64,000 bases of DNA, taken from assembly GCA_035542215.1 (NCBI GenBank), contig DATKLW010000173.1, positions 1,717 to 65,716 on the forward strand, written 5' to 3'. Origin of the DNA: Thermoanaerobaculia bacterium. Its GTDB lineage: Bacteria > Acidobacteriota > Thermoanaerobaculia > UBA5066. Positions 34,778-49,238 of the stretch are shown one piece after another. A program made the position numbers and the translations under genes. The first letter of the stretch is position 1, and each line of letters begins with the position of its first letter. The notes beneath the pieces are model-generated. The model made no database searches. It worked only from the letters and a program-made list of their open reading frames with translations, and was not told where the DNA came from.

Positions 34778-36667
34778 CGACCGGCCGAGCGCCTCGAGGA
34801 ACGCCCGGGCCTTGTCGTAGCCGGGCTGCAGGGCGAGGGCCTCTTTCGCGAGCGCGCGAGCCCGATCCGTCTCGCCCGCCATCGCGCACGCGACCGCGAG
34901 ATTGAGCCGGGCTTCCGCGCTCGCGCCGTCGAGCCGCACGGCCTCCTCGAGATCCGCGCGGCCGCCTGCCGCGTCGCCGGACTCGATGCGCGAAAGGCCT
35001 CGGCGTTCGAGCAGCGAGGAAAGCGTGGCCGCCGCCTCGGCTCTCGGCGCAGCGGACGCGAGCGAGCGTCCGAGCGCCGCGATCGCTTCGTCGCTCTTCC
35101 CCGCGGCTGCGAATGACCGGCCCACGCGGAGCCAGAAGAGCGCGGGATCGGGATGTCCGGGCGCGGCCGCCCCGGCGTGCCGCATCGCGCCGGCGGCGTT
35201 CTTTTCGATCTCCCAGAGGACGAGGTGCATGTCTTCGTCCGCGGCGCCGTCCCAGAGGCCCGTCGGCCAGAGCGAGACGGCTGCGAGAACCGCCGCGGCC
35301 GCCACGGAGGCGCCGACGCCGCGCTTCGCCCGCCACGCCTCCGGGAGCTTCGCGACGGCGGCACCCGCGAGCGGCGCGAGCGCGACGAGGAGCGGCAGGC
35401 GATAGCGCGTCGCGACGAAGAAGGCGGCGACGGCGAGGACGTACGCGGGAATGAAGGCGGTCCAGACGAGCAGCGCGCGGCGCGCCTCTCCCGCCGAGGC
35501 GAGGATGGCGAGGACGAATCCCGCGCCCGCGAGTGGGAGGAGGAGGCCGGGGCCGACGGCGAGGATCTTCAGCGCGGTGCTGTGCTCGCGGTACCACGGG
35601 AAGCTGAAGTTGAGCGGCGCCTCGTCGCCCGAAAGAGTGAACCGGATCTTCCTCAGAAAGAGAGACGCGGCGGAGCCGGGGTTCGCGCGAATCCAGCGGA
35701 GCGCCTCGCGGGCGAAGTGCGCCGAGACCTCCGGGGTCGAAAGCGAGCGGCCCTCGGCTGCCTCGGCCACCCTCTTCGCATCCCGCGCCTGTCCGCCGAT
35801 GTCGGGCGTGATCCCCGGGAGCGCGCGGTAGACGCCGTTGGCGCCCGGCCCGTTCCCGACGAGAAAGTTCAGGCCGCCGTGCGAGGAGATGAGGACGAAT
35901 TCACGGGAGACGACGAAGTTCCGGAGGGTAACGGGCGCGATCGCGACGGCGGCGCCGCCGACGAATGCCGCAGCGATCCACACCCTTCTAAGAGATTTCT
36001 CTTTGAACATGAAAAGAGCCAGGGCCGCCGCGATCGCGGCGACGCAAAGGAGGGCGTTCGGGCGGTTGAGGGAAAGAAGGCCGCCCGCAAAGCCGGCGGC
36101 GATCATGACCCTCGAAGAAATCGGCGCTGCGGCGAGCGGCGGCGCCGCCCGCCGAACTCCGCCGCTTGCCGCTGCTTCGCCCCCAGTCACATTCGAAGAA
36201 AAGCGCCTTGGCGTGAGCCCCACAGAAAGCAGGTACAGGAAGAGCGCCGTGAGGAACGGGTCCAGCGCCGCCTGCAGGATGAGCGCCTCGTGAAACGTCA
36301 CGACGCCCGTCAGGGCGAAGAGGACGCCCGCGGGGAGCGCCGCGCGGTCGCCGAAGAGGCGCCGCGCCGTCAGGAAGACGAGCACGACCGCCGCCGCGCC
36401 GAGCATCATCTGGACGACGCGCGCGACGGGGAACGACACGCCGGTCGCCGCGAGGAAATACTCGTAGAGCGGCGACACGAAGAACGGCACGGGCCCCTCG
36501 CCGCGGAGCAGGAGATCTCCGTTCGCGATGCGCCACGCGAGGCGTGCGTACACGCCGCCGTCGAGGTCGCCGTAGGGCTGGAGGAGCGGATGGCCTCCGA
36601 GCTGCGCGAGGACGGCCGCCTTCGCGGCGATCGCCCCCGCGGCGAGAAGGAGAAGGCGGCGGGTCAC
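34772..36667 (-). CDS. GT39/ArnT-like glycosyltransferase with C-terminal TPR repeats
   Basis: The N-terminal ~450 aa are polytopic (PLYEYFLA..., many TM helices). The C-terminal part looks TPR-like (AEARLNLAVACAMAGETDRARALAKEALALQPGY). Confidence 0.75.
   Translation of the reverse strand: MTRRLLLLAAGAIAAKAAVLAQLGGHPLLQPYGDLDGGVYARLAWRIANGDLLLRGEGPVPFFVSPLYEYFLAATGVSFPVARVVQMMLGAAAVVLVFLTARRLFGDRAALPAGVLFALTGVVTFHEALILQAALDPFLTALFLYLLSVGLTPRRFSSNVTGGEAAASGGVRRAAPPLAAAPISSRVMIAAGFAGGLLSLNRPNALLCVAAIAAALALFMFKEKSLRRVWIAAAFVGGAAVAIAPVTLRNFVVSREFVLISSHGGLNFLVGNGPGANGVYRALPGITPDIGGQARDAKRVAEAAEGRSLSTPEVSAHFAREALRWIRANPGSAASLFLRKIRFTLSGDEAPLNFSFPWYREHSTALKILAVGPGLLLPLAGAGFVLAILASAGEARRALLVWTAFIPAYVLAVAAFFVATRYRLPLLVALAPLAGAAVAKLPEAWRAKRGVGASVAAAAVLAAVSLWPTGLWDGAADEDMHLVLWEIEKNAAGAMRHAGAAAPGHPDPALFWLRVGRSFAAAGKSDEAIAALGRSLASAAPRAEAAATLSSLLERRGLSRIESGDAAGGRADLEEAVRLDGASAEARLNLAVACAMAGETDRARALAKEALALQPGYDKARAFLEALGRSK
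35979..36017. repeat. copy of the dispersed motif inside the GT39 gene (weaker relatives at 36108-36124 and 36186-36205)
   Basis: CACACCCTTCTAAGAGATTTCTCTTTGAACATGAAAAGAG. Confidence 0.65.
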
Positions 36668-36706: not shown

Positions 36707-37651
36707 ATGGCCGCGTTCTGGATCGGCGTGGACGGGGGCGGCACGCGCACGCGCGCTGTCGTGGCGGGCGAGGACCTCGTTCCGATGGGCAGCGGCGCCT
36801 CGGGACCCGCGAACGCTTCGACGCGCCCGCTCCCGCTCGTCGTCGAAACGGTCCTCGAGGCCGCCGGGGACGCCGCCGCCTCGGCGACCGTCGCGGCCGC
36901 CCGCGCGGAGAAAGTCGGCGTCGGTCTCGCGGGCGTCGAGTCGGCGGGCCTCGTCGCGCCGCTCACCGCCGCCCTCGAGGAGCATTTCGGCGCGGGACGC
37001 GTCCTCGTGACGACGGACGCGCGCATCGCGCTCGCCGGCGCCTCGCCCGGCGATCCGCAGGGGCCGGGCGTCGTCCTGATCGCGGGGACCGGGGCGATCG
37101 CCTACGGGCGCTCCGCGGGCGGGGCCGAGGCGCGTGCGGGCGGCTGGGGGCCGCTCCTCGGCGACGAGGGCTCGGGCTACGCGATCGCGCGCCAGGGCCT
37201 CGCCGCCGTCGTCCGGGACCTCGACGGGCGCGGCCCGAAGACGGCGATCCGGGAGATGCTCTTCCGGTCCGCCCGCGGGATCCACACGCTGGAGGAGCTT
37301 CTCGCGAAGATCTACAGGTCCGAGGGCGGCGCGGGCGACGTCGCGGCGTACTTCCCGATCGTCCTTGCGGCGGCGAAGGCCGGCGACGCCGAAGCGCGCC
37401 GGATCCTCGGCGAAGCCGGCAGAGAGCTCGCCCTCGCGGCGCTCACGGTCATCCGAAAGCTCCGGCTCGAGAACTCGTCGTTCCCCGTCTCGACCGTCGG
37501 CGGCGTTTTCAGCGCGGGCGACCTGCTCGTCGGACCCCTCGCGGCCGCGCTCCACGCCGTGGCGCCGGGCGCGCAGGTCGGCCCGCCGGCGTATCCGCCC
37601 GAGATCGGCGCCATCCGGCTCGCCCGGGCGCGAGCGGAGGCGCTCCCGTGA
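36707..37651 (+). CDS. BadF/BadG/BcrA/BcrD-type ATPase, N-acetylglucosamine kinase-like
   Basis: Motifs IGVDGGGTRTR and GWGPLLGDEGSGY. The stop overlaps the murQ start. Confidence 0.8.
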   Translation: MAAFWIGVDGGGTRTRAVVAGEDLVPMGSGASGPANASTRPLPLVVETVLEAAGDAAASATVAAARAEKVGVGLAGVESAGLVAPLTAALEEHFGAGRVLVTTDARIALAGASPGDPQGPGVVLIAGTGAIAYGRSAGGAEARAGGWGPLLGDEGSGYAIARQGLAAVVRDLDGRGPKTAIREMLFRSARGIHTLEELLAKIYRSEGGAGDVAAYFPIVLAAAKAGDAEARRILGEAGRELALAALTVIRKLRLENSSFPVSTVGGVFSAGDLLVGPLAAALHAVAPGAQVGPPAYPPEIGAIRLARARAEALP

Positions 37652-38505
37652 GCGACACGGCGGCGCTCCTCCGCCGGATGCACGAAGCGGACGCCGACGT
37701 GCAGACGGCCGTCGGCGCGGCGCTCCCCGCTCTCGCGCGGGCGGCCGACGCGATCGCCGCCCGTCTCGAGGCCGGCGGCCGCTGGATCTACGTCGGCGCC
37801 GGGACGAGCGGCCGGCTCGGCGCGCTGGACGCGGCCGAGATCCCGCCGACGTTCGGGACGGACCCCTCCCTCGTCGTCGCGCTCCTCGCGGGAGGGAAGG
37901 ACGCCATGTTCGAGGCCGTCGAAGGAGCCGAGGACGACGCCGAAGCCGGCGCGGTCGACCTTCTCCGCGCCGGGCTCACGTCGAACGACGCCGTCGTCGG
38001 GATCGCGGCGAGCGGCGGAACGCCGTACGTGCGCGGCGCCTTGAAGGAGGCGCGCGCGCGGGGCGCCCTGACCGTCTCCGTCGTCTGCCGTCCCGGAGCG
38101 CCGCTCCTCGCCGAGGCGGACATCGGCATCCTCCTCGACACCGGGAAAGAAATCCTCGCCGAGTCCAGCCGGCTGAAGGCCGGGACCGCCCAGAAGATCG
38201 CGCTCAACATGCTCTCGACGGCCGTCATGGCCAAGCGCGGCCTCGTTTACGAGGGCGAGATGGTCGCGATGCGGCCGACGAACGAGAAGCTCCGAAAGAG
38301 GGCAAAACGAATCGTGGCGCAGCTGGCGGGAACGTCCGAAGAGGCCGCCGAAGATCTTCTTGGAAGGGTTAGTTGGCATTTGCCTTCCGCACTCGTCGCG
38401 GCGAAATGGAAACTCGACGCTTCGGCGGCGTCTCTTCACCTTTCTAGGAAGAAATTCAACGTGGCGGCTGCACTGAGCCAGCCTCCGGAGACGGGCGGCA
38501 GATGA
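37648..38505 (+). CDS. murQ: N-acetylmuramic acid 6-phosphate etherase
   Basis: SIS domain motifs YVGAGTSGRLG, ASGGTPYV and SRLKAGTAQK. GTG start overlaps the previous stop. Confidence 0.88.
   Translation: MSDTAALLRRMHEADADVQTAVGAALPALARAADAIAARLEAGGRWIYVGAGTSGRLGALDAAEIPPTFGTDPSLVVALLAGGKDAMFEAVEGAEDDAEAGAVDLLRAGLTSNDAVVGIAASGGTPYVRGALKEARARGALTVSVVCRPGAPLLAEADIGILLDTGKEILAESSRLKAGTAQKIALNMLSTAVMAKRGLVYEGEMVAMRPTNEKLRKRAKRIVAQLAGTSEEAAEDLLGRVSWHLPSALVAAKWKLDASAASLHLSRKKFNVAAALSQPPETGGR
38350..38457. repeat. inverted pair of the dispersed motif in the 3' end of murQ (arms 38350-38372 and 38431-38457)
   Basis: The arms are GAAGATCTTCTTGGAAGGGTTAG and TCTCTTCACCTTTCTAGGAAGAAATTC. Confidence 0.75.
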
Positions 38506-39440
38506 GCGTGGGAGCAAAGAACCTCTCTTCGGTGCCCTCGCTCGTGGATCTCCACATCCACGGCGCCTTCGGCGTGGACGTCCTCACGGCGTCCGCCGCC
38601 GAGATGGACCGGCTCGCCGCCGGGCTCTTCGCCCGCGGCATCTCCGGGTTCCTGCCGACGCTCGTCCCGCTGCCGCTGGCCGGGATGGCCGCGGCCGTCT
38701 CGCGCCTCTCGGAGTGGATGCGGACGCGGCGCGAGGGCGACGGGCGCGGGGCGATGCCGCTCGGCCTCCACTTCGAGGGCCCGTTCGTTTCGGCCGCGCG
38801 CTGCGGCGCGCTTCACCGCGCCGACTTCCTCGACGGCGACGACGCGACCGCCCTCGGCGCCTTCTTCGAGATCGCGTCCTCGGCGCCCGGGCGCGGCATG
38901 ACGACGCTCGCCCCCGAGATTCGGGGCGGCATCGCGGTCGTCAGGGAGTTCGTCCGCCGCGGCTTCGTCGTCTCGATCGGGCACACGGAAGCGGACGTCG
39001 CGGCGCTCGACGCGGCGCTCGCGGCCGGCGCGCGCCACATGACGCACTTCGGCAACGCGATGAAGCCCCTCCACCACCGTGAGGCGGGCCCGGTCGGATG
39101 GGGCCTCGTGACGGACGGCGTGAGCGTGGACGTCATCGCGGACGGCCATCACCTCTCGAAGGAGATGCTCGAGCTCGTCTTCCGGGCCAAGGGGGACGGC
39201 CGCGTCGCGCTCGTCAGCGACGCGATGCCGGCTGCCGGCCTCGCGGACGGCGACTACGCGGTCTGGGGCGAAACGCTGACCGTGAAGAGCGGCGCCGCCC
39301 GCAACGCGTCGGGCGCGCTCGCGGGCTCGACGGCGCTCCTCGACGACTCCGTGAGACACCTCCAGAGGATCGGCTTTCCCGAAGAGCGCGCGATTCGCGC
39401 GGCGTCGGACGTCCCGCGGGCGGTCCTCTCCGCCGGGTGA
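38502..39440 (+). CDS. nagA: N-acetylglucosamine-6-phosphate deacetylase (short form)
   Basis: Motifs DLHIHGAFGVD, HFEGPF, SIGHTEA, HMTHFGNAM and LVSDAM. Confidence 0.85.
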   Translation: MSVGAKNLSSVPSLVDLHIHGAFGVDVLTASAAEMDRLAAGLFARGISGFLPTLVPLPLAGMAAAVSRLSEWMRTRREGDGRGAMPLGLHFEGPFVSAARCGALHRADFLDGDDATALGAFFEIASSAPGRGMTTLAPEIRGGIAVVREFVRRGFVVSIGHTEADVAALDAALAAGARHMTHFGNAMKPLHHREAGPVGWGLVTDGVSVDVIADGHHLSKEMLELVFRAKGDGRVALVSDAMPAAGLADGDYAVWGETLTVKSGAARNASGALAGSTALLDDSVRHLQRIGFPEERAIRAASDVPRAVLSAG

Positions 39441-39490: not shown

Positions 39491-39826
39491 ATGGAACTCG
39501 CGCTCCAGGACGACGGAAGCGTCACGGTCGTCACGTTGTCGGGCGACCTCGTCATCGGCGAGGCCGAGGCTCTCTTCAAGAGGACCGTCAGCCGTCTTCT
39601 CGAGGAAGGCCGGGTGCAGCTCGTCGTCGACTGCAGCGGCCTGCGCTACGTCGATTCATCCGGCCTCGGCTCTCTCGTGCGCGCGCTCACGACGTCCCAG
39701 CACGAAGGCGGCGGCGCGAAGCTCCTCGGCGTTCCGGCGACCCTCCGCAAGCTCCTCGAACTGACGAAGCTCGATTCCGTCTTCGAGAGTTTCGACAACC
39801 GCGACCAGGCCGTCTCCAGCTTCTAG
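39491..39826 (+). CDS. STAS-domain anti-sigma-factor antagonist (SpoIIAA-like)
   Basis: 111 aa. Motif LVVDCSGLRYVDSSGLGSLV contains the phosphorylatable Ser context. Confidence 0.85.
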   Translation: MELALQDDGSVTVVTLSGDLVIGEAEALFKRTVSRLLEEGRVQLVVDCSGLRYVDSSGLGSLVRALTTSQHEGGGAKLLGVPATLRKLLELTKLDSVFESFDNRDQAVSSF

Positions 39827-39849
39827 ACACGGCGCTCCGGCGCCGGGCA

Positions 39850-42273
39850 TTGGTGCAGATGGGCGACGTCGGCGAAACGGGACGGGCCGCCGAGGCCGAG
39901 TCCGCCGCTCTCGCGGAGCTGGCGCGTTGCGAGTCCGTCGCGCAGAAAGCGGCGTGGGCCGCGCGCTGGTGCGCGCGCCTTTCCGGAGCGGACGAGTCGC
40001 TCGTCTTCGGCATCGACGCGCCCTCCGGCGGCTGGATCGCCCTCGGCGCGTCCGGCTCGGGAGCCGGCAAGAGCCTCCGCCGCGTGATTCCGCGGGACGC
40101 CGGCGTCGTCCGGGAGGCCACGCGCAGCCGCACCCCCTGCGTGCGGCGCCGCGACGACGCCTCCTTCGACACCGACCCGCTGGCGCCCCTTCTCCCGGAG
40201 GGACCCGGCGTGGTCCTCGTCGTCCCGCTCCTCCTCGACAAGGACGCCGCCGGCGCGGCGGTTCTCTCGTACAGGCAGGAACCGGCTGGCGGGCGCCTCG
40301 CGAGACTCGAGGCGTTCCTTCCGGTCGCCGCCGCGGCGCTCGACCGCGCCCAGGCCGCCGAACGCAAGACGGCGGGCCAGCTCTTCGCGATCGAGCGCCT
40401 CACGAGCCTTTACGACGTCACGAAGGCCTTCGGCTCGACGATCGACCTCGGGGAGCTGTCCGCGCTCATCGCCCGCAAGGCCGCGGATTTCGCGGTCGCC
40501 GAGGTCGCGTCGCTCTGGCTCCTCGACTCCGAGGCGGGCGAAGTCTCACTTGCCGCCACGGCCGTCAACGGGAACTACGAGGTCGCGAACCCGCCCGAGT
40601 CCGTCGGAGGATCGCTCGTGGGCGACGTCCTCGCGGACCGCGCGATCGTGGCAAAGAACGCACTCGCGGACGACGACCCCCTGCGAAATGCCGACCCTTC
40701 CTACGAGGTCCGGAGCGTGCTTGCCGTCCCGCTCGTCGAAAACGACGCGCCGATCGGCGTCCTCGCCGCCGTCAACAAGCGCGGGCGCCGCCCGGAGTTC
40801 ACGGCGGGGGACGAGGAGCTGCTCGCGGACGTCGCGCGACAGGCCGTGGCCGCGCTGCGGAACGCGCAGCAGTACGAGGCCGAGAAGAAAGTCGAGGAGC
40901 TGGACGCTCTTCTCGCGGTGAGCCGCGAGATCACCTCGACGCTCGACCTCGACAAGGTCATGCGGACGATCGTGAACGCCACGTCGGCGCTGATCCGCTA
41001 CGACCGCTGTGCGATCGCGATCCTCCAGCGGGGGAAGCTCCGGATCGGGGCCGTCTCCGGCGCGGCCGAGGTGGACCGGAAGGACGCGTCGGTCAGGCGG
41101 AGCGAGGCGCTTCTCGAGTGGGTCTTCTTCGGCGGAACCAACGTCGCCGTGACGCGCCACGAGGACGACACGATCTCGAGCGACCGCCCGGAGACCGAGG
41201 AAAAGTTCCGGACCTTCTTCGACGAGAGCGGCCGCAACGCCTTCTACGGCGTTCTGCTCGAGGATGACGAGGGGAAGCTCGGCGTCCTCGGCTTCGAGGC
41301 GACGGAGCCTCTCGAGTTCGATTCGGAGACCCGCGACCTTCTCCAGATCCTCGTCAACCAGGCCACGGTCGCCGTCCGCAACGCCCAGCTCTACGAGCAG
41401 GTCCCCCTGCCCGGGTTCCTCCGGCCTCTCGCGGAGCGCACCCGCAAGCTGAGGCAGCAGCCCGGCGGCCGCGCGCGGCGGTGGGCACTCGGGAGCGCCG
41501 CCGCCCTGCTCCTCCTCGCCGTACTGCCGTGGAACGTCCGGGTCTCCGGGCCCGCGCGCGTCGTGCCGGCCCGGAGGATTCCGGTGACGACGGCCGTCGA
41601 GGGCGTCGTCGAGAGCGTGGCGCACCGCGAGGGGGACGCGGTGGCCGCCGGGGCCGTCGTGGCGACGCTTCGCGACGACGCCTACCGCGCAGCTGCGGCC
41701 GAAGCGCGAGCGGCCGAGCAGATCGCCGAGGCCGAGGTCTCCCGCCACCGCGCAGAGGGAAACGTCTCGGCCCTGTTCCAGGCGGTCGCCCGGCGTGACG
41801 AGATGCGCGCGCGCGCGGCACTCGCCGGGGAGAAGCTCAGGCAAACGAGCCTCCGCGCGCCCGAGGCCGGCGTCGTCCTGACGCCGCGGCTCGAGGAGCG
41901 CGTCGGTCAGCTCCTCCCGGCCGGCGCCGAGTTCGCCGTTCTCGCCGACACCTCGGCCGTTCTCGCCGAAGTCGCCGTTCCGGAGCGGGACGCGGCGCTC
42001 CTCGCCACGGGCCAGAAAGTCGACGTCAAGGTGAACTCCTACCCCTACAGGACGTTCCCCGGGACCGTCGTCCGCCTCGGCGCGGCCGTCCGGGAGGAGG
42101 GCGAGCAGCGGTTCATGATCGCCGAGGCGCGCGTGGAAAATGCAGACGGGCTGCTCCGGCCCGGCATGCTCGGCAGGGCCAAGGTGTCGACGGGAGCGCA
42201 GCGCCTCCTCCGCGTCCTTCTCCGCGGCCCCGCGCGTTGGCTCTGGTCCCGGCTCTGGCCCCTCCTGCCGTGA
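39850..42273 (+). CDS. three GAF domains + TM helix + HlyD-type periplasmic adaptor domain
   Basis: GAF-like blocks end ...ALRNAQQYE and ...AVRNAQLYE. The TM helix is WALGSAAALLLLAVLPW. After it come a lipoyl hairpin, a coiled coil and a beta-barrel (VEGVVESVAHREGDAV..., LRAPEAGVV..., YPYRTFPGTVVRLG). The start is uncertain: TTG 39850 or ATG 39859. Confidence 0.8.
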   Translation: MVQMGDVGETGRAAEAESAALAELARCESVAQKAAWAARWCARLSGADESLVFGIDAPSGGWIALGASGSGAGKSLRRVIPRDAGVVREATRSRTPCVRRRDDASFDTDPLAPLLPEGPGVVLVVPLLLDKDAAGAAVLSYRQEPAGGRLARLEAFLPVAAAALDRAQAAERKTAGQLFAIERLTSLYDVTKAFGSTIDLGELSALIARKAADFAVAEVASLWLLDSEAGEVSLAATAVNGNYEVANPPESVGGSLVGDVLADRAIVAKNALADDDPLRNADPSYEVRSVLAVPLVENDAPIGVLAAVNKRGRRPEFTAGDEELLADVARQAVAALRNAQQYEAEKKVEELDALLAVSREITSTLDLDKVMRTIVNATSALIRYDRCAIAILQRGKLRIGAVSGAAEVDRKDASVRRSEALLEWVFFGGTNVAVTRHEDDTISSDRPETEEKFRTFFDESGRNAFYGVLLEDDEGKLGVLGFEATEPLEFDSETRDLLQILVNQATVAVRNAQLYEQVPLPGFLRPLAERTRKLRQQPGGRARRWALGSAAALLLLAVLPWNVRVSGPARVVPARRIPVTTAVEGVVESVAHREGDAVAAGAVVATLRDDAYRAAAAEARAAEQIAEAEVSRHRAEGNVSALFQAVARRDEMRARAALAGEKLRQTSLRAPEAGVVLTPRLEERVGQLLPAGAEFAVLADTSAVLAEVAVPERDAALLATGQKVDVKVNSYPYRTFPGTVVRLGAAVREEGEQRFMIAEARVENADGLLRPGMLGRAKVSTGAQRLLRVLLRGPARWLWSRLWPLLP

Positions 42274-44465
42274 GTGCCAGTCCTCGGGTCCCGGCCTCGC
42301 GATACGTCTCGGCCGCCCGCCATGGCCGTGCGGCCGAGGCCCTCGAGGCGCGCCACGGCGTCCGGCTCGACCGTCCCGCCCTCCGGAAAGATCTCGTCAT
42401 CCGGCGCCAGGTTCGGATCGGCGAGGTGACCTGGGTCGTCAAGCAGCCGGAGACGAACAAGTTCTACAACTTCGACGACGACAACTGGACGCTGATCGAA
42501 CTCTTCGACGGGACGCGGACCCGGATCGAGATCCTCGAGGAGTACCGCCGGCGATTCCCGGGAGGCGACACCGCGCTCACGCTCATCCTCGACTTCGAGG
42601 AGATGCTCCGCAAGGTCGACCTGCTCGAGCAGTCCGCTCCCGAGAAGAACCTCCAGCTCCTGTCGAAGTTCAGGAACCTGAGGCAGCGTGCGGCCGAAGA
42701 GAGAGCGGAGGGCTTCAACGTCCTCTTCATGCTCTTCAAGGTTTTCGACCCCGACAAGATCCTCGATCGGACGCTCCGGTACGTCCGATGGATCTGGCGC
42801 CCGCCGGTCGTCGCCGTCGCCTGCCTGACGTTCGTCTTCACGATCTCGGTCTTCGCGAGCCGCTTCGACACGATCTGGGCCCAGACGATGGAGCTCTACG
42901 CGTTCCTGAAAAAGCCGTTCTGGGAGTTCGTCCAGTTCTGGGTCATCCTGACCGGCATCGGCGCCATACACGAGTTCGGCCACGGCTACGCCGTGAAGAT
43001 GTACGGGGGCGAGGTTCACGACATGGGGATCGCGCTCCTCTACTTCATGCCCGCCTTCTACTGCGACACGACGGACTCGCTTCTCTTCCCGACCAAGTGG
43101 CAGAGGCTCACCGTCACGGTGGCCGGGATCTACATCGAGGCGATCCTCTGCACGATCGCGACGGCGCTCTGGGTGGCGAGCTACCCCGACACGTTCATCC
43201 ACGACGTGGCCTACAGGATCATGCTCTTCACGGGGGTTTCGACGATCTTCTTCAACATCAACCCCCTCGTGAAGATCGACGGGTACTACGCCCTCTGCAG
43301 CCTCACCGAGATCCCGGAGCTGCGCGAGGAATCGTTCCACTGGCTCGGGGCCCTCTTCCAGCGCCAGGTCCTGCGACTGAACGTCGAGGTGCCGGTCGTC
43401 TCGCGGCGGAAGAAGCGGATCTTCCTGATCTACGGGCCGCTCGCCCTCGGCTACATCGGCTTCATCATGGCGTTCATCGCGAGGCTCCTCGACAACTTTT
43501 ACTCGAAAGTGGTCCCGGAGCTGGCCGTCGTCCTGCTCCTCGTCACGCTCTACTTCTTCTTCCGGAAGAGGGTCCGCCTCGTCGTCCGCATCTCCCGCCT
43601 CTTTTATCTCGACAAGAAGGAGCTCGTCATGTCGCCGCGGGCCCGCCTGCCCCTCCTCGCCGCCGCCGCCGGCCTCGTTCTCCTCCTTGCCGTCCCCTGG
43701 GGCCGGCGGACGATCCGGATGAACGCCGTTCTCGAGCCCGCCGTGTCCATGAAGGTGGAGGCCCCGGAAGACGGGTTCGTCCGGCAGGTCTTCGCGCGCG
43801 AAGGAGACCTCCTCCGGGCGGGCCAGCCTCTCTTCCAGATCGAGAGCCCCGGCGTCACGGCCGATACTGCGTCCGTCTCCGCCCGCCACACCGGGGCCAC
43901 CGACGAGACGGAACGGAGCCTCTGGTCCGGAGATGCCGGGAGCGCCTATCGGGCCGAGCGAAAGCAAGGGGCGACCGCGGCCGGCCTCGCTCTCGACCAG
44001 GCGCGCACGGCGCGGCTCGCCGTGCCGAGCCCGATGGACGGGCGGCTGCTGACGGCAAGGACGGAAGATCTCGCCGGCCGGTGGGTCACGGCGGGCACGC
44101 CGCTCGCGACCGTCGGCGATACGCGGCAGATGACGGTCGCGTTCCCCGTGTCGGAAAGGCTGCTGACGGACCTCGCCGTCGGGGCGCCGGTGGCGGTCCA
44201 GCTCCGCGAGCGCCCGTTTCGGATCCTCCGCGGATCGATCGTCTCGATCGCCGCCGCATCAAGGGCGGCGCCGTCCGACGCTCCCTCGGCCCTCCGCCCT
44301 TCGGAGATTCCCGGCCGGATCGTCGCGGTCGCGCGCTTCGAAAATTCCGACGGGAGCCTGAAGCCGGGGCTCGAGGGGCTGGCGAAGATCGCGGGACCCC
44401 GCAGCTCGCTCCTGGGAGAGGGATTCCGGATCCTCTCCCGCTGGTTCCGCCGGATCGCCTGGTGA
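42270..44465 (+). CDS. PqqD/RRE-like N-terminal domain + M50 (site-2 protease) membrane metalloprotease + C-terminal HlyD-type adaptor domain
   Basis: - The GTG overlaps the previous stop; the track ORF begins at 42237.
- The N-terminal region WVVKQPETNKFYNFDDDNWTLIELFDGTRTRIEILEEY looks PqqD-like.
- Zinc site IHEFGHGYAV; second S2P motif NINPLVKIDGYY.
- C-terminal part: EDGFVRQVFAREGDLLRAGQPLFQIE...PMDGRLL... Confidence 0.8.
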   Translation: MSASPRVPASRYVSAARHGRAAEALEARHGVRLDRPALRKDLVIRRQVRIGEVTWVVKQPETNKFYNFDDDNWTLIELFDGTRTRIEILEEYRRRFPGGDTALTLILDFEEMLRKVDLLEQSAPEKNLQLLSKFRNLRQRAAEERAEGFNVLFMLFKVFDPDKILDRTLRYVRWIWRPPVVAVACLTFVFTISVFASRFDTIWAQTMELYAFLKKPFWEFVQFWVILTGIGAIHEFGHGYAVKMYGGEVHDMGIALLYFMPAFYCDTTDSLLFPTKWQRLTVTVAGIYIEAILCTIATALWVASYPDTFIHDVAYRIMLFTGVSTIFFNINPLVKIDGYYALCSLTEIPELREESFHWLGALFQRQVLRLNVEVPVVSRRKKRIFLIYGPLALGYIGFIMAFIARLLDNFYSKVVPELAVVLLLVTLYFFFRKRVRLVVRISRLFYLDKKELVMSPRARLPLLAAAAGLVLLLAVPWGRRTIRMNAVLEPAVSMKVEAPEDGFVRQVFAREGDLLRAGQPLFQIESPGVTADTASVSARHTGATDETERSLWSGDAGSAYRAERKQGATAAGLALDQARTARLAVPSPMDGRLLTARTEDLAGRWVTAGTPLATVGDTRQMTVAFPVSERLLTDLAVGAPVAVQLRERPFRILRGSIVSIAAASRAAPSDAPSALRPSEIPGRIVAVARFENSDGSLKPGLEGLAKIAGPRSSLLGEGFRILSRWFRRIAW

Positions 44466-44476
44466 CCGAAAACACG

Positions 44477-44503
44477 AGCGCCCCGGCGGCGGGGCCGGGG
44501 CGC
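44477..44503. terminator. GC-rich hairpin between convergent genes (bidirectional terminator candidate)
   Basis: AGCGCCCCGGC-GGCGG-GCCGGGGCGCT forms an 11-bp perfect stem followed by TTTCC. It lies between the M50-HlyD stop (44465) and the repeat-peptide stop (44539). Confidence 0.55.
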
Positions 44504-44538
44504 TTTCCTGACGCGAGGAAGAACGTGAAGCGCGCCGA

Positions 44539-44973
44539 TCAGTCGTTCTGCGTCGAACGCGCGTTCAGCGTCCGCGGAGCCGCCTGCGCGCGGGTCGCAT
44601 TGAGCCGCGGAGCCGCCTGAACACGGGTCGCCTGGACCCGGGGGGCCGCCTGCGCGCGGGTCGCATTGAGCCGCGGAGCCGCCTGAACACGGGTCGCCTG
44701 GACCCGGGGCGCCGCCTGTGCGCGGGTCGCATTGAGCCGCGGAGCCGCCTGGGCACGGGTCGCCTGGACCCGGGGGGCCGCCTGCGCGCGGGTCGCGTTG
44801 AGCCGCGGAGCCGCCTGAACGCGGGCGCTCGCGACCTTGGCCGACGTCGCCGGCGTCACGGCCGGGTTGTTGCCGAGGTTGCTGACGCGGATCTCACCCA
44901 TCTCCTGGCCCGTCGCCTCCTTGATCTTCGCCTTTTGCTCGTCGGTCAGTTTGATTCGAACCTCGTTTGCCAT
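44539..44973 (-). CDS. tandem-repeat peptide/protein: 40-aa Lys/Glu-rich leader-like N-terminus + 8 x 11-aa R(A/V)QAAPR(V/L)(Q/N)AT repeats
   Basis: In frame with track ORF 44539..45030. ATG 44971-44973 lies behind AAAGAGGAGG. Sequence: MANEVRIKLTDEQKAKIKEATGQEMGEIRVSNLGNNPAV... followed by the repeats. No signal peptide, TM helix or Cys. Confidence 0.75.
   Translation of the reverse strand: MANEVRIKLTDEQKAKIKEATGQEMGEIRVSNLGNNPAVTPATSAKVASARVQAAPRLNATRAQAAPRVQATRAQAAPRLNATRAQAAPRVQATRVQAAPRLNATRAQAAPRVQATRVQAAPRLNATRAQAAPRTLNARSTQND
44572..44835 (-). repeat. 8 contiguous 33-bp tandem repeats (two alternating subtypes, 66-bp period) encoding the 11-aa units
   Basis: On the + strand the two unit types alternate with only a few substitutions. 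One type is CCGCGGAGCCGCCTGAACACGGGTCGCCTGGAC and the other is CCGGGGGGCCGCCTGCGCGCGGGTCGCATTGAG. Confidence 0.9.
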
Positions 44974-45038
44974 GGTCTGCCTCCTCTTTCGTCTTTCGGT
45001 TTTGCTTTCGTCTTCGCGATGGCCAGGCAAACCTCAAC

Positions 45039-45054
45039 TGCAAGAGGGGGGCCA
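45039..45054 (-). promoter_or_regulatory. sigma-54 (-24/-12) promoter candidate for the repeat-peptide gene
   Basis: The minus strand reads TGGCCCCCCTCTTGCA, with GG and GC at the exact consensus spacing of TGGCAC-N5-TTGCA. It lies ~65 nt upstream of the ATG. A sigma-54 activator gene is directly upstream. Confidence 0.65.
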
Positions 45055-45151
45055 GAACCGATCCGGCCGCCCGCCTCGTGCAAGTGCTTGAGAAAGCGTC
45101 GAGGACCGCCCGCGGCCGCTATGCCAGCTCGATGACTTTTTCAACTTCGGT

Positions 45152-45162
45152 TGACTGAGTCA
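45152..45162. promoter_or_regulatory. perfect palindrome TGACTGAGTCA, candidate enhancer (UAS) site
   Basis: The palindrome lies ~100 bp upstream of the -24 element. An additional TGACT half-site sits at ~45132. Confidence 0.35.
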
Positions 45163-45175
45163 CCCCATCGTCCAT

Positions 45176-46552
45176 TCAGAGGCGGTGCTTCCGGCAGAGG
45201 TACTTCATCTGGTTCGCGTCGAGGCCGAGCGCTTCGGCTGCACGGGCCTTGACGCCTCCGGCGCGGGCGATGGCCTGGCTCACGAGCTCCTTCTCGAATC
45301 TCTTGACCGAGATGGCGAAGGAGAGCCCGGGGGGAACCGGTTCGCCGGCACCGGAAGCGCGGCTCAGGGTTCCCGGCAGGTGCTCCGGACCGATCGTGTC
45401 CCCGTCCACCATCAGCGTCAGCATCTCGACGAGGTGCTCGAGCTCGCGCACGTTTCCGTGGAACGGGTGTCTCGCGAGCGTCTCGAAGGCCGCCGGCGAG
45501 AACGTCTTCGGATCGCGGCCGTGACGCGCGGCCGCCCGCGCTGCGAAGAAGTCCACGAGGAGGGGGACGTCCTCGCGCCGCTCCCTCAGCGGCGGGATCC
45601 TCAGGGTGACCGTGTTGAGGCGATAAAAGAGGTCGTTGCGGAACGTCCCGGCTGCCACGCGCTGCTCGAGGTCTTCGTTCGTGGCCGCGACGAGCCGGAT
45701 GTCGACGTGGATCGTCTTCGTCCCGCCGACCCGCTCGAAGTCGTGGCGCTCGAGGACGCGCAGGAGTTTGGCCTGGACGGCCGGCGAAAGCGTCGCCACC
45801 TCGTCCAGGAACAGGGTCCCGCCGTGTGCGAGCTCGAACCGTCCGGCCCGGGAGGCCACGGCGCCGGTGAAAGCGCCCCGCTCGTGGCCGAAGAGCTCGG
45901 ACTCGGCGAGCGTCTCCGTGAGCGCGGAGCTGTTCACGGCCACGAACGGACCGGCCTTCCGCGGACTGCCCCGGTGAATCGCCTCGGCCACGAGCTCCTT
46001 GCCCGTCCCGCTTTCGCCGGTCACGAGGACCGTCGCGTCGGTGGGCGCGACCTTCTCGATGAGGGCGAAGAGCGCCCGCATCCCCGGGCTCTCGCCCACG
46101 AGCCCGCCGTACGACTCGCGCCTGAAAACGTCCTCCTTCAGCGCGCGGTTCTCGGCAAGGATTCGGTGCCGCTCCATGGCCCGCCCGAGGACGTGCAAAA
46201 GGTCCGACTTCTCGAGAGGCTTGCGGAAGAAATCGAACGCCCCCATTTCGATGGCCTTGAGGGCCCAGCGGCGTTCCTTTTCGGCCGTCATGACGACGAC
46301 GGTGGCATCCGGCTGTCGCTGCCGGATGGCCTGCAGCAGGCGGAGGCCCTCTTCCGCCTCGCCCGAGGGCGGCAGCCGAAGGTCGAGGAGATAGACGTCG
46401 GGCTCGAGCTCGGCGAGCCTCAGCCCCTCGACGGCATCCCGCGCCGAGTGGACTTCGAATCGTTCCCGGAGCGCCCACACGAGCTGATCGAGGAGGAGCG
46501 AGTCGTCCTCGACGACGGCGAGACGCCCCTCCACCCCTCGGCCCGGGCCCAC
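45176..46552 (-). CDS. sigma-54-dependent response regulator (NtrC family: REC + AAA+ + HTH)
   Basis: The receiver carries DVYLLDLRLPP. The AAA+ domain carries [15 protein letters not shown] and [15 protein letters not shown]. The C-terminal HTH is RAAEALGLDANQMKYLCRKH. Confidence 0.93.
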   Translation of the reverse strand: MGPGRGVEGRLAVVEDDSLLLDQLVWALRERFEVHSARDAVEGLRLAELEPDVYLLDLRLPPSGEAEEGLRLLQAIRQRQPDATVVVMTAEKERRWALKAIEMGAFDFFRKPLEKSDLLHVLGRAMERHRILAENRALKEDVFRRESYGGLVGESPGMRALFALIEKVAPTDATVLVTGESGTGKELVAEAIHRGSPRKAGPFVAVNSSALTETLAESELFGHERGAFTGAVASRAGRFELAHGGTLFLDEVATLSPAVQAKLLRVLERHDFERVGGTKTIHVDIRLVAATNEDLEQRVAAGTFRNDLFYRLNTVTLRIPPLRERREDVPLLVDFFAARAAARHGRDPKTFSPAAFETLARHPFHGNVRELEHLVEMLTLMVDGDTIGPEHLPGTLSRASGAGEPVPPGLSFAISVKRFEKELVSQAIARAGGVKARAAEALGLDANQMKYLCRKHRL

Positions 46553-46555
46553 GGC

Positions 46556-47248
46556 TTAGACCCGCCGCCCGCGTGCGGCCGGAAGCGGCAGCAGCAGACG
46601 CACGCACGTGCCCTCGCCCCCGCTCCTCACCTCGACGTCGCCGCGGTGGTGGCGCAGGATCCTGCGGGCCGTGTAGAGCCCGAGCCCCACGCCTCCAGGC
46701 TTCGTCGTCTGGAACGGCCGGAAAAGGCGCCGCCGCACGAACTCGTCCGCCATTCCAGAACCATCGTCTTCGACCTCGACCACCGCAAAGTCCCGCCTGC
46801 CGCGACGTTCGACGCCCGTCCGGACCGTCACGCAGCCAGCCGCGGCTTCCTGGGCGTTCTGGACCACGCTCTGGATCGCCTCGCGCAGGTAGTAGGGGTC
46901 GCCCCAGACCACGGGGACCTCTGCGAAGCTCGTGCTCATCCGTGGCGCGGATCGGCCGCGGGGCCGGGACGTCCGAAGGACCTCCTGCAGCAGGTCGTTC
47001 AGCTCGAGCGGGACCTTGATGAGGACGGAGTCCCGGTGAGCCGACCAGCTCCGCGCGATCCCGTCGAGCTTCTGGACGGTCGCCTGCAGGAGGTCCGTGG
47101 CGCTGCGCCTGAAGTCCGGATCGGCGTAGTGCTCCTCCATGTTCGAGAGGAGAAGGCTCAGCCGAAGCTCGAGGTTCCGGATGTCGTGCAGGAGGACCGA
47201 GTCCTGCGTGGACCGGACGCGGCGTGAGCCGGACGGACGTTTCGGCAT
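46556..47248 (-). CDS. soluble histidine kinase (HisKA + HATPase_c, no sensor/TM domain)
   Basis: H-box LLHDIRNLE. N/G boxes VVQNAQEAA, VEDDGSGM, GGVGLGL. Confidence 0.85.
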   Translation of the reverse strand: MPKRPSGSRRVRSTQDSVLLHDIRNLELRLSLLLSNMEEHYADPDFRRSATDLLQATVQKLDGIARSWSAHRDSVLIKVPLELNDLLQEVLRTSRPRGRSAPRMSTSFAEVPVVWGDPYYLREAIQSVVQNAQEAAAGCVTVRTGVERRGRRDFAVVEVEDDGSGMADEFVRRRLFRPFQTTKPGGVGLGLYTARRILRHHRGDVEVRSGGEGTCVRLLLPLPAARGRRV

Positions 47249-47252
47249 GACC

Positions 47253-48044
47253 TCAGCGCCGGGCTGCCGCCGCGTGGAACGTGAGTTTCACCGCCATGCC
47301 CGGCCGCAGCACACGTTTCGGATCCCGCTTCACCTGCACGATCACCTGCACCGTTCCGCTGCCCGGGTCGATCACGGGGCTGATGAACGAGACGCGACCG
47401 CTCGAGAGCGCGTCCGGGAAACCCGGGGCCTCCACGGTCACCTCGTCGCCCGCCCGCACGGTCTGGAGGCTCGAAGCCTGCAGGTAGGCGCGCGCGAGGA
47501 GCGGCTCGAGCGCCATGACCTTGAAAAGGGGCTTGCTTTCCTCGAGGAGGAATTTCTCGCCCACCCGCGCGTACCGGTCCGCCACGACCCCGTCGAAGGG
47601 AGCCCGCACCACGGACCGGTCGATCACGAGCTTCGCCCTCTCCAGTTCCACGAGGGCCAGTTCGTAGCGCGAATGCTTCTGCTCGAACTCGGCCTCGCTC
47701 GTCAGGTTCAGGCGGCGCAGCTCCTCGTACCTCTTGAGGTCCGCGTGGCTCACGGCGAGCGTCTCCTCGGCGGCCTTCAGGTCCAGCAGGAACTCGCGCT
47801 GGTCCAGCGTGGCAAGCGGCTGCCCCTTCTTCACGAACTCGCCCCTCTCGGCCTGGATCGAGTCGATGACGCCGCTGACCCGGGTCGTCACGGAGACTTC
47901 CTGCTCGACCATGAGGTTCGAGGAGACGGTGAGCGGTTCCGAAGCAGCGGGGGATTCCGACACGCCGGCCAGGGACCGGGCGAGCGCGAAGAAGGAGACG
48001 GCGACGAACGCCCGACCGGAAAGCCGGATTGGATCGCACGTCAT
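47253..48044 (-). CDS. short HlyD/RND-type periplasmic adaptor (membrane fusion protein), no cognate pump adjacent
   Basis: Motifs SGVIDSIQAERGEFVKKGQPLATLD and VRAPFDGVVADRY. N-terminal signal/anchor. Confidence 0.8.
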   Translation of the reverse strand: MTCDPIRLSGRAFVAVSFFALARSLAGVSESPAASEPLTVSSNLMVEQEVSVTTRVSGVIDSIQAERGEFVKKGQPLATLDQREFLLDLKAAEETLAVSHADLKRYEELRRLNLTSEAEFEQKHSRYELALVELERAKLVIDRSVVRAPFDGVVADRYARVGEKFLLEESKPLFKVMALEPLLARAYLQASSLQTVRAGDEVTVEAPGFPDALSSGRVSFISPVIDPGSGTVQVIVQVKRDPKRVLRPGMAVKLTFHAAAARR

Positions 48045-48095: not shown

Positions 48096-49181
48096 TCAGA
48101 TCTTCCAGAACCAGCCCTTCTTCTCGAAGACCCTGAGGACGGCCCACCAGAACAGGATCGTGGCGAGGGCGAACGCGTGCGAGCGGAGCGTGGGATCCGC
48201 GATCCACGAGAAGCCAGAACGGTAGATCCACGCGTGGAGGGTGATCGCCTTCCCCGCCGCGTCCGTCCATTTGACGAGTCCCATCGTCTTGGCGAGGAGG
48301 CCCGAGAGGACGAAGACGAGGAGCGGGTTCGTCCCGAACGTGAAGAACGGCGCGAACGGTCTCTTCACCCGGAGGACGTCGATCACGAGAACGCACAGAC
48401 CGATCGTGAGGAGCGCAGCGCCCGACGTGAAAACGACGTAGGAGGCCGTCCAGAGGTTCTTGTTGATCGGGAGGAAGCGGCCCCACAGGAGTCCCGCGGC
48501 GGTCGCGGCGGCGCCCCAGACGAGAAGTTTCGCGGCCTTCGTCTTCGCGCCCGCGGCGCCTTTCAGCAGGAAGCCCGTGAGCGTGCCCGTGAGCATCGTC
48601 GCGATTGCCGTCAGGGTCGACACGATCCCCTCGGGGTCCCAGCCCTGCGCGTTCTTCCAGAGATGGCCCTTGAGGACCGCGAGGTCCACGGCGCGCTGGA
48701 CGTTGCCCGCGGGCGTGAGGTCGTAGCCCGTCCCGAGGAGGATCCACGTGTGGAGCGCGAGGAGTACGGCGACGGCCGCGGTAACGCCCGCCCACCTCCT
48801 CTTCCAGACGGCCAGCAGGATGCAAGTTCCGAGAGCGTATGCCACACCGATGCGCGGGAGGACGCCGGGGATGCGCAGACGCGAGAGGCGCTCGAGGAAC
48901 GGCACGAACGGGTAGAACGCCATGAACCAGCCGACGAGGACGATCGTCATCCCGCGGCGGAACGCGTGGCGGGCGAGGTCGAGGCGGCTCGCTCCCTGCG
49001 CCATGCGCTTTTCGAGCGAGAAGACGCCCGCGACGCCGACGATGAAGAGGAACCACGGGAAGATGAGGTCCGTCGGAGTCCAGCCGTGCCACTCCGCGTG
49101 GTCGAACGGCCAGTAGAGGTGCCCCCAGTCGCCCGGGTTGTTCACGAAGACCATCCCGACGACCGTCAGGCCGCGGAACAT
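48096..49181 (-). CDS. DUF1624/DUF5009-type membrane acyltransferase (heparan-alpha-glucosaminide N-acetyltransferase-like); 5' end questionable
   Basis: The sequence MFRGLTVVGMVFVNNPGDWG...WHGWTPTDLIFPWFLF is polytopic. The in-frame upstream codons encode ...EKEQRLAALD without any start codon (see findings). Confidence 0.75.
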   Translation of the reverse strand: MFRGLTVVGMVFVNNPGDWGHLYWPFDHAEWHGWTPTDLIFPWFLFIVGVAGVFSLEKRMAQGASRLDLARHAFRRGMTIVLVGWFMAFYPFVPFLERLSRLRIPGVLPRIGVAYALGTCILLAVWKRRWAGVTAAVAVLLALHTWILLGTGYDLTPAGNVQRAVDLAVLKGHLWKNAQGWDPEGIVSTLTAIATMLTGTLTGFLLKGAAGAKTKAAKLLVWGAAATAAGLLWGRFLPINKNLWTASYVVFTSGAALLTIGLCVLVIDVLRVKRPFAPFFTFGTNPLLVFVLSGLLAKTMGLVKWTDAAGKAITLHAWIYRSGFSWIADPTLRSHAFALATILFWWAVLRVFEKKGWFWKI

Positions 49182-49238
49182 GTCGAGGGCTGCGAGGCGC
49201 TGCTCCTTCTCGATGAGCGCATGTTAGAACGAGCGACG

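Follow-up and report, generated by a model that had tools for sequence, protein, structure and literature searches.

In exporters of the CvaAB-TolC (colicin V) and ComAB type, which work with a membrane-fusion protein and TolC, the leader is cut by a protease built into the exporter. In the TriABC-OpmH system of Pseudomonas two adaptors share a tube that serves the RND pump TriC. Here we describe a group of genes, hereafter the module, at positions 39491-48044 of a 64-kb stretch of DNA from Thermoanaerobaculia bacterium (contig DATKLW010000173.1; G+C ~70%); this whole stretch is referred to as the window. The nearest relatives of the window proteins and DNA come from metagenome bins of Thermoanaerobaculia and Acidobacteriota. 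The module encodes a protein in which a PqqD-like domain of the RRE type (recognition element of ribosomally synthesised and post-translationally modified peptides), a polytopic M50 (site-2) protease and a HlyD-type periplasmic adaptor are fused (M50-HlyD). It further encodes an adaptor fused to three GAF domains (GAFx3-HlyD), a third, plain adaptor (plain HlyD), a small repeat protein and several regulators. We consider it probable that the module forms a conduit of an undescribed type for leader-guided cleavage and export, one that recognises, cleaves and probably exports leader-bearing proteins. The reason for this reading is that the RRE-protease-adaptor protein, two further adaptors, linked TolC genes and a repeat protein with a distinctive N-terminus recur together. 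In the literature that we searched there is no description of an M50-HlyD fusion, of the module or of LEPR-XLL/DUF4347 secretion.

The module resembles the peptidase-containing ABC exporters in that recognition and cleavage of an N-terminal leader would fall to a protease physically integrated in the exporter. The differences lie in the parts. A C39 cysteine protease sits on the ABC transporter in those systems, whereas in the module an M50 metalloprotease sits on an adaptor; and they use one adaptor, whereas the module has three different ones and no ABC transporter or ATPase. The protease-adaptor fusion appears to fill the position occupied in bacteriocin exporters by the peptidase-containing ABC transporter. 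With TriABC-OpmH the module shares the presence of more than one adaptor species and matching hairpin lengths, and presumably a single tube leading onto a TolC-family channel. It differs from TriABC-OpmH in having no pump and three adaptors, two of which carry large cytoplasmic or membrane domains (GAFx3 and RRE-M50).

M50-HlyD is encoded on the plus strand at 42270-44465. Counted from the GTG at 42270 it has 731 aa, the length of nearly all homologues, and this start codon overlaps the stop codon of the upstream gene. It matches Pfam Peptidase_M50 (PF02163) with 32.2 bits at a cut-off of 27.2, and HlyD_3/HlyD_D23 matches follow C-terminally. The zinc-binding and catalytic motif HEFGH lies at 42969-42983 (residues 234-238). 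The second M50 motif, NxNPLxKxDGY, whose Asp is the third zinc ligand, lies at 43254-43286 and reads NINPLVKIDGYY (residues 329-340, with NINPLVKIDGY at 329-339). H234, E235 and H238 as well as N329, N331, P332, D337, G338 and Y339 are invariant in an alignment of 27 sequences whose members are 24-48% identical. The protease call of the earlier note, including both catalytic motifs, is thus borne out, and a degenerate active site was seen in none of these relatives (27/27 intact). In the full-length AlphaFold2 model (mean pLDDT 75) the N-terminal β3α3 domain is followed by a helical membrane domain, a last transmembrane (TM) helix and the adaptor. Both motifs are inside predicted helices, and in the membrane domain a β-hairpin comes after the HExxH helix. 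The number of helices in the model and the positive-inside rule applied to the loops suggest seven TM helices, a cytoplasmic N-terminal domain and a periplasmic adaptor. The adaptor domain (43701-44405; hairpin helices at residues 527-553 and 556-581) matches MexA, AcrA and MacA in Foldseek with E about 1e-13, and a sequence search of the PDB with M50-HlyD returned only lipoyl-domain and MexA fragments. The family comprises at least 2,686 clusters at 50% identity (E <= 1e-30), mostly full-length proteins of ~700 aa, and according to a genome scan its relatives occur in at least 437 species.

The RRE-like winged-helix domain is cytoplasmic and lies at 42375-42614 (residues ~36-115). Modelled alone (residues 32-128), it is predicted by AlphaFold2 with pLDDT 87 as three strands followed by three helices. 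The six best Foldseek matches are leader-binding B1 proteins of lasso-peptide clusters (TbiB1, 5v1v/5v1u; 6jx3), which align over the full length with TM-scores of 0.57-0.72 and are leader-bound crystal structures; later matches are far worse. The PqqD-like domain proposed in the earlier note missed the Pfam threshold in our search. It is supported by the fold, by a match to NF041824, the model of the daptide RRE-M50 protease (166 bits, residues 64-442 of a 742-aa open reading frame (ORF), the N-terminal domain included), by a precomputed PqqD match in a relative of 26% identity, and by the NCBI label 'PqqD family peptide modification chaperone' on several proteobacterial homologues. We accept the RRE assignment because of this fold and family context, not because of the Pfam score. 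The RRE domain is predicted to bind the leader of the precursor.

The daptide and epipeptide proteases are the nearest counterparts of the N-terminal half. In the daptide paper the RRE-fused site-2 protease MpaP is described as removing the leader. As in MpaP/DapP, a PqqD-like RRE is followed by a polytopic M50 domain in M50-HlyD, which adds a C-terminal TM helix and a HlyD domain that MpaP lacks. The precursors differ too, being repeat peptides without the ELExMEAP leader or the invariant C-terminal Thr, and the hosts of the module are diderm. A daptide cluster was rejected: the 166 bits to NF041824 are below its cut-off of 300, and MpaB, MpaC, MpaD and MpaM enzymes are absent from the window. 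EpeP is thought, according to a review, to both cleave and export its peptide. YydH/EpeP and M50-HlyD are alike as membrane M50 proteases that mature a small exported peptide (for M50-HlyD, a predicted role), and NF058609 matches weakly (46.7 bits). M50-HlyD differs in its additional RRE and HlyD domains and in having two adaptors as partners. An epipeptide cluster was also rejected, the score being far below the cut-off of 225 bits and neither a radical-SAM epimerase nor an ABC gene being present nearby.

The small precursor gene (44539-44973, minus strand) encodes 144 aa, namely the leader MANEVRIKLTDEQKAKIKEATGQEMGEIRVSNLGNNPA (~38 aa) and a basic tail of the form (AAPRLNATRAQAAPRVQATRAQ)x~4 that ends in ...STQND. 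The tail corresponds to a 66-nt tandem repeat in the DNA (3.8 copies, 44572-44825). An AGGAGG Shine-Dalgarno sequence stands 5' of the ATG. On the other side, where the two units converge, a strong intrinsic terminator hairpin (44477-44504, minus strand) is turned towards the end of the M50-HlyD gene; its 11-bp stem has 10 G-C pairs, and a T-rich tail comes after it. A σ54-type -24/-12 promoter, TGGCCCCCCTCTTGCA, is found at 45039-45054 on the same strand, 81 nt upstream of the ATG. A strict σ54 motif precedes 28 of 74 peptide genes, where 0.014 would be expected per 200 nt (about one in total), and a relaxed motif precedes 55 of the 74.

For comparison the genome scan was done with a 7-sequence alignment, and the 80 best of the loci found were taken. 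The census of neighbours covers 82 related loci (individual loci are given below by L numbers) and used a simple ORF caller, phmmer and all-against-all clustering. In ~8 loci of high G+C the caller miscalled genes, and these were rechecked by tblastn and regular expressions. The loci comprise ~77 from Acidobacteriota; outside that phylum 8 proteobacterial and 3 Bdellovibrionota loci were examined, whose proteins are 24-30% identical to those of the window, the proteobacterial homologues coming from a protein search of annotated plasmids and chromids. Gene families that recur in the 82 loci are GAF-HlyD (77), M50-HlyD (75), the response regulator (66), STAS (48), plain HlyD (47) and, in loci of the Thermoanaerobaculia type, the short kinase (13); no others do.

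Between M50-HlyD and the regulator, almost every acidobacterial locus carries a small ORF on the minus strand. The N-terminus of its product is conserved by lineage and its tail is wholly different between loci. The strict pattern of leader plus repeat was found in 66/82 loci with enough downstream sequence; the acidobacterial loci outside it have K-rich peptides or leader variants instead, and in two distant metagenomic loci (L083, L084) no leader-type ORF could be recognised downstream. These comparative data strongly reinforce the suggestion of the earlier note that the adjacent repeat peptide is the candidate substrate. Three leader types can be told apart: 'MANEVRIKLTDEQK...' in Thermoanaerobaculia, 'MxIQKKSLIS...' in Terriglobia, and several short K-rich peptides per locus in Acidiferrales. 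In L025-L028 and L040 a SET-domain protein (151 aa; in L027 at 7536-7991) is encoded between the short K-rich peptide genes and the regulator. A profile search with the leader alignment returned 41 short unnamed proteins; the index seems to miss the longer repeat-bearing forms.

The tails change very fast. At 97% identity of M50-HlyD the tail is the same, and at 89% it has one extra unit of 22 aa. At 85% another unit, (AAKAAAPRYA)n, stands behind a leader that is 93% identical. Among the repeat units are (KAT)n, (GRA)n, (KGTLA)n, (SKGLTT)n, (ARVTPG)n, (GAPLGK)n and (KLNAKMNA)n, and acidic units, (DTSIESA)n and (EEGLR)n, also occur. The tails are Cys-free, with 20% Ala and 19% Lys+Arg, and their net charge is usually between +10 and +44. 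L015 and L024 have 2-3 paralogous precursor genes each, downstream of M50-HlyD, with acidic tails of net charge -12 to -29. The precursors have no TM segment. Two explanations of the tail were rejected. A defined fold (pentapeptide or hexapeptide β-helix, amphipathic helix) does not agree with units of 3-22 residues, flips of charge and the lack of conserved Cys or aromatic residues, and the acidic variants speak against a histone-like DNA binder. The rapid turnover of the tail would be in keeping with a role as strain-specific signal, antagonistic peptide or surface or matrix coat.

The other two adaptors are encoded on either side. GAFx3-HlyD (39850-42273, plus strand; 807 aa) consists of cytoplasmic GAF domains, one TM helix and a periplasmic adaptor. 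Pfam matches are GAF, GAF_2, GAF_3, HlyD_D23 and HlyD_3; two of the GAF copies are strong (residues 199-336 and 366-511) and the N-terminal third one is weaker. Its score against TIGR01730 (RND_mfp) is 94.9 bits, exactly the cut-off of the model. The gene is preceded by that of a STAS-domain protein of the anti-sigma-antagonist type (39491-39826, plus strand; 111 aa; DSSGLG motif), which has 62 bits to Pfam STAS and 61.7 bits to TIGR00377 at a cut-off of 53.45. STAS genes adjoin the module on either strand, and the protein is a probable phospho-switch regulator of the module. Plain HlyD (47253-48044, minus strand; 263 aa) is a membrane-anchored RND-type adaptor that scores 147.8 bits against TIGR01730 (cut-off 94.9). 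In Terriglobia its gene lies between those of GAF-HlyD and M50-HlyD, and it is found inside the GAF-HlyD/M50-HlyD operon also in Bdellovibrionota and Proteobacteria. The earlier note had described STAS, GAFx3-TM-HlyD and PqqD-like-M50-HlyD as one operon whose two large genes share a GTGA at 42270-42273. The ORFs and Pfam agree with these three genes and the overlap is legible in the sequence itself; the unit is in fact larger, and its minus-strand part, which extends to 48044, had been missed.

All three adaptor proteins have lipoyl, α-hairpin and β-barrel domains with Pfam HlyD_D23/HlyD_3 matches. Their hairpins align without gaps except for an insert of 5 residues in plain HlyD. The membrane-proximal domain of adaptors contacts RND or ABC pumps. 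In both fused adaptors it is replaced by a shared C-terminal RW...W helix. The hairpin match and the missing membrane-proximal domain fit a mixed adaptor tube that is not seated on a pump. The motif R-x3-L-x6-S is known from TolC-docking hairpin tips. It is present in plain HlyD as KRYEELRRLNLTSEAEF and in 26 of 49 acidobacterial plain adaptors, in most of them at a similar position in the hairpin; in the two fused adaptors it occurs only scattered and at inconsistent positions. As general proof of TolC docking the motif was rejected, and we keep it as weak support because it is not conserved in proteobacterial adaptors.

Relatives outside Acidobacteriota connect the module with TolC. In the three Bdellovibrionota loci (27-28% identical), two OEP (TolC-family) genes accompany those of M50-HlyD, plain HlyD and GAFx3-HlyD. 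Their cargo has 831-2,079 aa with adhesin-type domains, and its N-terminus is K-rich and continues with KLE[ED]RIAP[SG]M. TolC-family genes lie in or next to the operon in 3/3 Bdellovibrionota and 6/8 proteobacterial loci. The proteobacterial hosts are Azospirillum, Burkholderia, Variovorax, Thalassospira, Cupriavidus metallidurans CH34, Rhodobacterales and Rhizobiales, and further hosts are IncF plasmids of E. coli and Citrobacter. In the annotated operons the order of genes is giant protein, TolC-family protein, adaptor of ~265-380 aa, HlyD protein of ~450-620 aa and M50-HlyD of ~715 aa. In Cupriavidus CH34, an unannotated record where the evidence consists of tblastn matches only, a TolC-like match lies upstream of the M50-HlyD match. 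The two Rhodobacterales loci L088 and L091 have no annotated TolC, and L088 shows one adaptor gene beside M50-HlyD. The operon TolCs of Azospirillum, Burkholderia, Variovorax, E. coli and Cupriavidus are 36-48% identical to one another. The earlier note had called the locus devoid of a pump and of an outer-membrane factor (OMF). The first part stands; the second is true only locally, TolC being encoded in the operon in most of the distant relatives examined. Since TolC is in the operon in these relatives, an unlinked OMF is, by analogy, the likely outer-membrane partner in the genome of the window.

The giant proteins of the proteobacterial operons have 3,000-16,000 aa and are labelled as LEPR-XLL domain, DUF4347, tandem-95 repeat, calcium-binding or Ig-like proteins. 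At their N-termini a basic stretch comes before [LI]E[PS]R-x-[LF]-x-[SD]-A, and these N-termini score 15.6-32.3 bits against the LEPR-XLL model NF012209 (24 positions; cut-off 17). This model matches neither the window peptide nor three other acidobacterial peptides. Several short acidobacterial peptides carry KKLE[KR]K[VT]PL, which by its sequence looks like the same kind of signal as the LEPR and KLEERIAP N-termini. In E. coli (L099, IncF plasmid NZ_CP081687.1, 54820-69240) and in L101 we found the TolC-adaptor-HlyD-M50-HlyD operon of the E. coli/Citrobacter type. The gene next to the operon on the E. coli plasmid encodes a 4,460-aa Ig-like protein; its N-terminus reads MTTIKNRRLRPRAHRFALESRQLFDGAA, and a DUF4347-like region comes after it. 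Of 5,426 complete E. coli genomes, 24 carry the operon. The plasmid operon offers a tractable model of the whole family.

One alphaproteobacterial clade has a truncated SecA paralog (~650-675 aa) directly 3' of M50-HlyD, with the SecA_DEAD motor, the preprotein cross-linking domain and a P-loop. It was located in L088 (11093-13051), L091 (13026-15050), L083 (9737-10957) and L090 (~3833-5410), and in 12/12 plasmid records that carry the clade it stands beside the M50-HlyD gene. Its annotations vary between 'prepilin peptidase', 'DEAD/DEAH box helicase', 'SecA' and 'hypothetical'. The SecA-clade loci that were examined showed no TolC gene, and there is no SecA paralog in the window or in the acidobacterial loci. 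The arrangement recalls the accessory Sec systems (SecA2/SecY2) of giant serine-rich repeat adhesins in that a dedicated SecA paralog goes with giant repeat proteins, which have an unusual N-terminus in the clade described here. It differs from it in that SecY2 and Asp proteins are absent and the partners of SecA are M50-HlyD and the adaptors. Two other genes were noticed in distant loci. In L083 (4359-4730) and L092 (7660-7956) the adaptor genes come after one for a DUF3467 protein (~100-120 aa), and a SapC-family protein is encoded between M50-HlyD and the SecA paralog in L091 (12212-13033). Both may be accessory factors.

The observations can be joined into the following scheme. The kinase and the σ54 regulator of the module would switch on the gene at 44539-44973 from the -24/-12 promoter. 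Its product has the conserved leader of ~38 residues in front of a repeat tail that evolves fast, lacks Cys and is mostly basic. The leader is predicted to be bound in the cytoplasm by the RRE domain of M50-HlyD and would be removed at the inner membrane by the seven-helix M50 protease. M50-HlyD, GAFx3-HlyD and plain HlyD, with their matching hairpin lengths, may assemble into one periplasmic duct. This duct would dock on a TolC-family channel (unlinked here), and the tail would leave through it. The cytoplasmic GAF domains and STAS could gate the duct or report its state. A wider reading, to which we give slightly less than an even chance, is that the module represents a distinct diderm pathway that is pump-less, combines the RRE-M50-adaptor fusion with two further adaptors (one bearing a GAF or another sensor domain in the cytoplasm), has a dedicated TolC-family channel and, in some lineages, a SecA paralog. 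At the same tentative level, leader-marked cargo may be exported N-terminus first in this pathway, from peptides of 30 aa to adhesin-like proteins of 4,000-16,000 aa. The cargoes would then be σ54-controlled hypervariable repeat peptides in Acidobacteriota and LEPR-XLL/DUF4347/Ig-like proteins in Proteobacteria, including E. coli plasmids, an assignment we also hold with a little under even confidence.

Several points weigh against the export conduit. The Pfam PqqD model (PF05402) scores 14.1 bits where 23.4 are required (E = 0.061), although this sub-threshold match (residues 55-119) spans the whole profile. The three leader types look unrelated to one another and that of the window lacks the LEPR/KLExR motif. 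Some tails are acidic, contrary to one simple physical role. TolC-family genes were found neither in the window nor in any of the ~77 acidobacterial loci, and the outer-membrane step is extrapolated here from relatives of 24-30% identity. Only about half of the plain adaptors of Acidobacteriota have the TolC-docking motif, and among proteobacterial adaptors it is not general. The module contains no motor or proton-driven transporter, which leaves the export of a polycationic peptide against the membrane potential unexplained. Finally, the literature that we searched holds no experimental data on any member of the family.

One may ask whether the three adaptors serve a conventional pump encoded elsewhere, e.g. 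one of the many MacB/FtsX permeases of the 'ADOP' type in Acidobacteria or a housekeeping ABC exporter, with M50 acting as a mere leader peptidase; the module would then be a tripartite exporter of the ordinary kind. We regard this as unlikely. By sequence and fold the HlyD domains are typical efflux adaptors, and the OMF is also unlinked in Acidobacteriota, so that other parts could be as well. In addition, a duplicated MacB_PCD/FtsX permease of the 'ADOP' type (825-924 aa, no ATPase; in L031 at 3591-6365) is encoded divergently upstream of GAF-HlyD in L025, L026, L028 and L031, four Acidiferrales loci only; it could be a lineage-specific partner or a chance neighbour. The surveys argue otherwise. 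Among 20 further large ORFs of the window and 8 ORFs of the module region there is no ABC, RND, MFS-efflux or OEP gene, and tblastn with five TolC and three SecA-like queries found nothing in the window. No ABC, RND or MFS pump family recurs near the module in the 82 loci, and the conventional ABC/RND pump that would be expected as the usual neighbour of such adaptors was accordingly not found. The operons of the 8 proteobacterial and 3 Bdellovibrionota loci, which encode cargo, adaptors and mostly TolC, have no pump gene either. The adaptors thus lack a linked inner-membrane ABC, RND or MFS transporter, and the ABC-like matches near some loci belong to the PstSCAB-PhoU operon and to SMC, not to exporters. 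The two fused adaptors, moreover, have the RW...W helix in place of the domain that contacts a pump. Classical type I secretion was rejected on similar grounds: there is no ABC transporter, and TIGR01843 scores are 58.9 and 28.1 bits at a cut-off of 208.65.

The regulatory genes raise the question whether the module is a signalling device. In such a device M50 would act in regulated proteolysis, destroying or activating the small protein in the cytoplasm, the HlyD domains would oligomerise or sense the envelope, and the output would be a cytoplasmic fragment acting on the σ54 regulator, the kinase or STAS. The σ54-dependent response regulator (45176-46552, minus strand) has REC, AAA+ with GAFTGA, and HTH_8 domains (Pfam) and is adjacent to the module in 66/82 loci. 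Together with the promoter, which has GG at -24 and GC at -12, this REC/AAA+ GAFTGA/HTH (helix-turn-helix) activator makes up σ54 two-component control. The short histidine kinase (46556-47248, minus strand; 230 aa) is cytoplasmic and consists of DHp and HATPase domains (Pfam HATPase_c), without a hydrophobic segment, TM helix or sensor domain. It is linked in 13/82 loci, of the Thermoanaerobaculia type only, and Terriglobia loci have no linked kinase. The genes of plain HlyD, the kinase and the regulator are spaced 3-4 nt apart, as if their products acted jointly. GAF, STAS, the sensor-less kinase and the σ54 activator are all signalling parts, M50/site-2 proteases are classically enzymes of regulated intramembrane proteolysis, and the lack of an export energy source would be no difficulty. 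We nevertheless find this explanation quite unlikely. The small proteins have no TM segment, unlike substrates of site-2 proteases, and a hypervariable tail whose unit and charge change ill suits a specific cytoplasmic partner. Furthermore, in relatives TolC genes and giant adhesin-like proteins accompany the same three adaptors, and a paralog of the preprotein translocase joins the operon in one clade.

Two known regulatory systems were compared with this part of the module. As in Agr, a small precursor gene goes together with a membrane protease predicted to process it and with an adjacent kinase/regulator pair predicted to act on the promoter of that gene, and the exported part varies rapidly between close relatives. 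The module differs from Agr in its σ54-dependent regulator, in a kinase without a membrane sensor and in the family of the protease. The product would be a long repeat tail, not a short cyclic peptide, and the kinase is not linked in Terriglobia. The PrsK/PrsR system of PEP-CTERM proteins was rejected. PrsR is the best NCBIfam model for the regulator (422.7 bits, cut-off 502.6 not reached); the kinase matches only the C-terminal part of PrsK (141.4 bits, cut-off 300) and lacks the PrsK membrane domain; and a PEP-CTERM motif is missing from the small peptides. At 3564-5675 the window encodes another σ54 activator, whose N-terminal part has two GAF domains, and the genome therefore uses σ54 more widely; rpoN was not seen in the window. 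In L032 and L036 the regulator is followed by a second, shorter M50-like gene (446 and 378 aa) in which no HlyD domain was detected, and in L032 a further STAS gene comes after it.

Comparison of the leader with 18 relatives gave 99, 85 and 268 substitutions at codon positions 1, 2 and 3, and this third-position bias means that the leader is under selection at the protein level. This bias, the framing of the ORF by a strong Shine-Dalgarno sequence and a terminator, a repeat of 66 or 33 nt that is a multiple of three with the frame open in the loci examined, the high third-position G+C that the ORF shares with its genome, and a position and orientation conserved across Acidobacteriota make it very improbable that the small ORFs are non-functional (low-complexity tandem repeats or a σ54-dependent regulatory RNA) and that the M50/adaptor complex has another substrate, even though the tails are low-complexity and wholly different between close relatives, the ORFs have no database family or name, and L083 and L084 lack a recognisable one.

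If the export conduit is real, TolC-linked export would take place without the transporter that is thought indispensable in tripartite systems and with an intramembrane protease instead. This would be a new solution for moving polypeptides across two membranes, and it would put the question of the energy source sharply. It would explain why some of the largest bacterial proteins known have LEPR-XLL/DUF4347 N-termini and give a function to a family of at least 2,686 clusters at 50% identity. Members of this family are now named inconsistently ('HlyD family efflux transporter', 'site-2 protease', 'PqqD family chaperone', 'biotin/lipoyl-binding protein'). It would also reveal hundreds of unannotated, fast-diversifying repeat peptides in soil Acidobacteriota, which may be signals, toxins, matrix or coat. 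Homologous operons exist in cultured organisms (E. coli with IncF plasmids, Cupriavidus metallidurans CH34, Azospirillum and Granulicella sp. S190), and the hypothesis is therefore directly testable.

Regarding the rest of the window, genes were chosen with the help of third-position G+C, because ORF length alone is no evidence for a gene at 70% G+C. Very long spurious antisense ORFs of up to 1,132 aa occur, e.g. at 31966-35364 (minus strand) and at many other places. The module is flanked by a neighbourhood that resembles cell-wall (MurNAc/GlcNAc) recycling, at 36707-39440 and 48096-54910. It includes a BcrAD_BadFG-type kinase, a GKRP/SIS (MurQ-like) protein, a NagA-like amidohydrolase, a NagX-like acetyltransferase, a β-lactamase2+Amidase_2 protein, an MR_MLE epimerase and an NlpC/P60+β-lactamase2 protein. 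These flanks are common to L001 and not to L002. At 9708-17081 the window encodes a [NiFe]-hydrogenase large subunit, a 4Fe-4S protein and HypF, which are apparently unrelated to the module. In L002 an MbnB/TglH-family gene, an HvfC_N (DUF2063) gene and a 138-aa ORF (4247-6505) lie just upstream of STAS, and they look like a separate peptide-modification cluster that is beside the module by chance.

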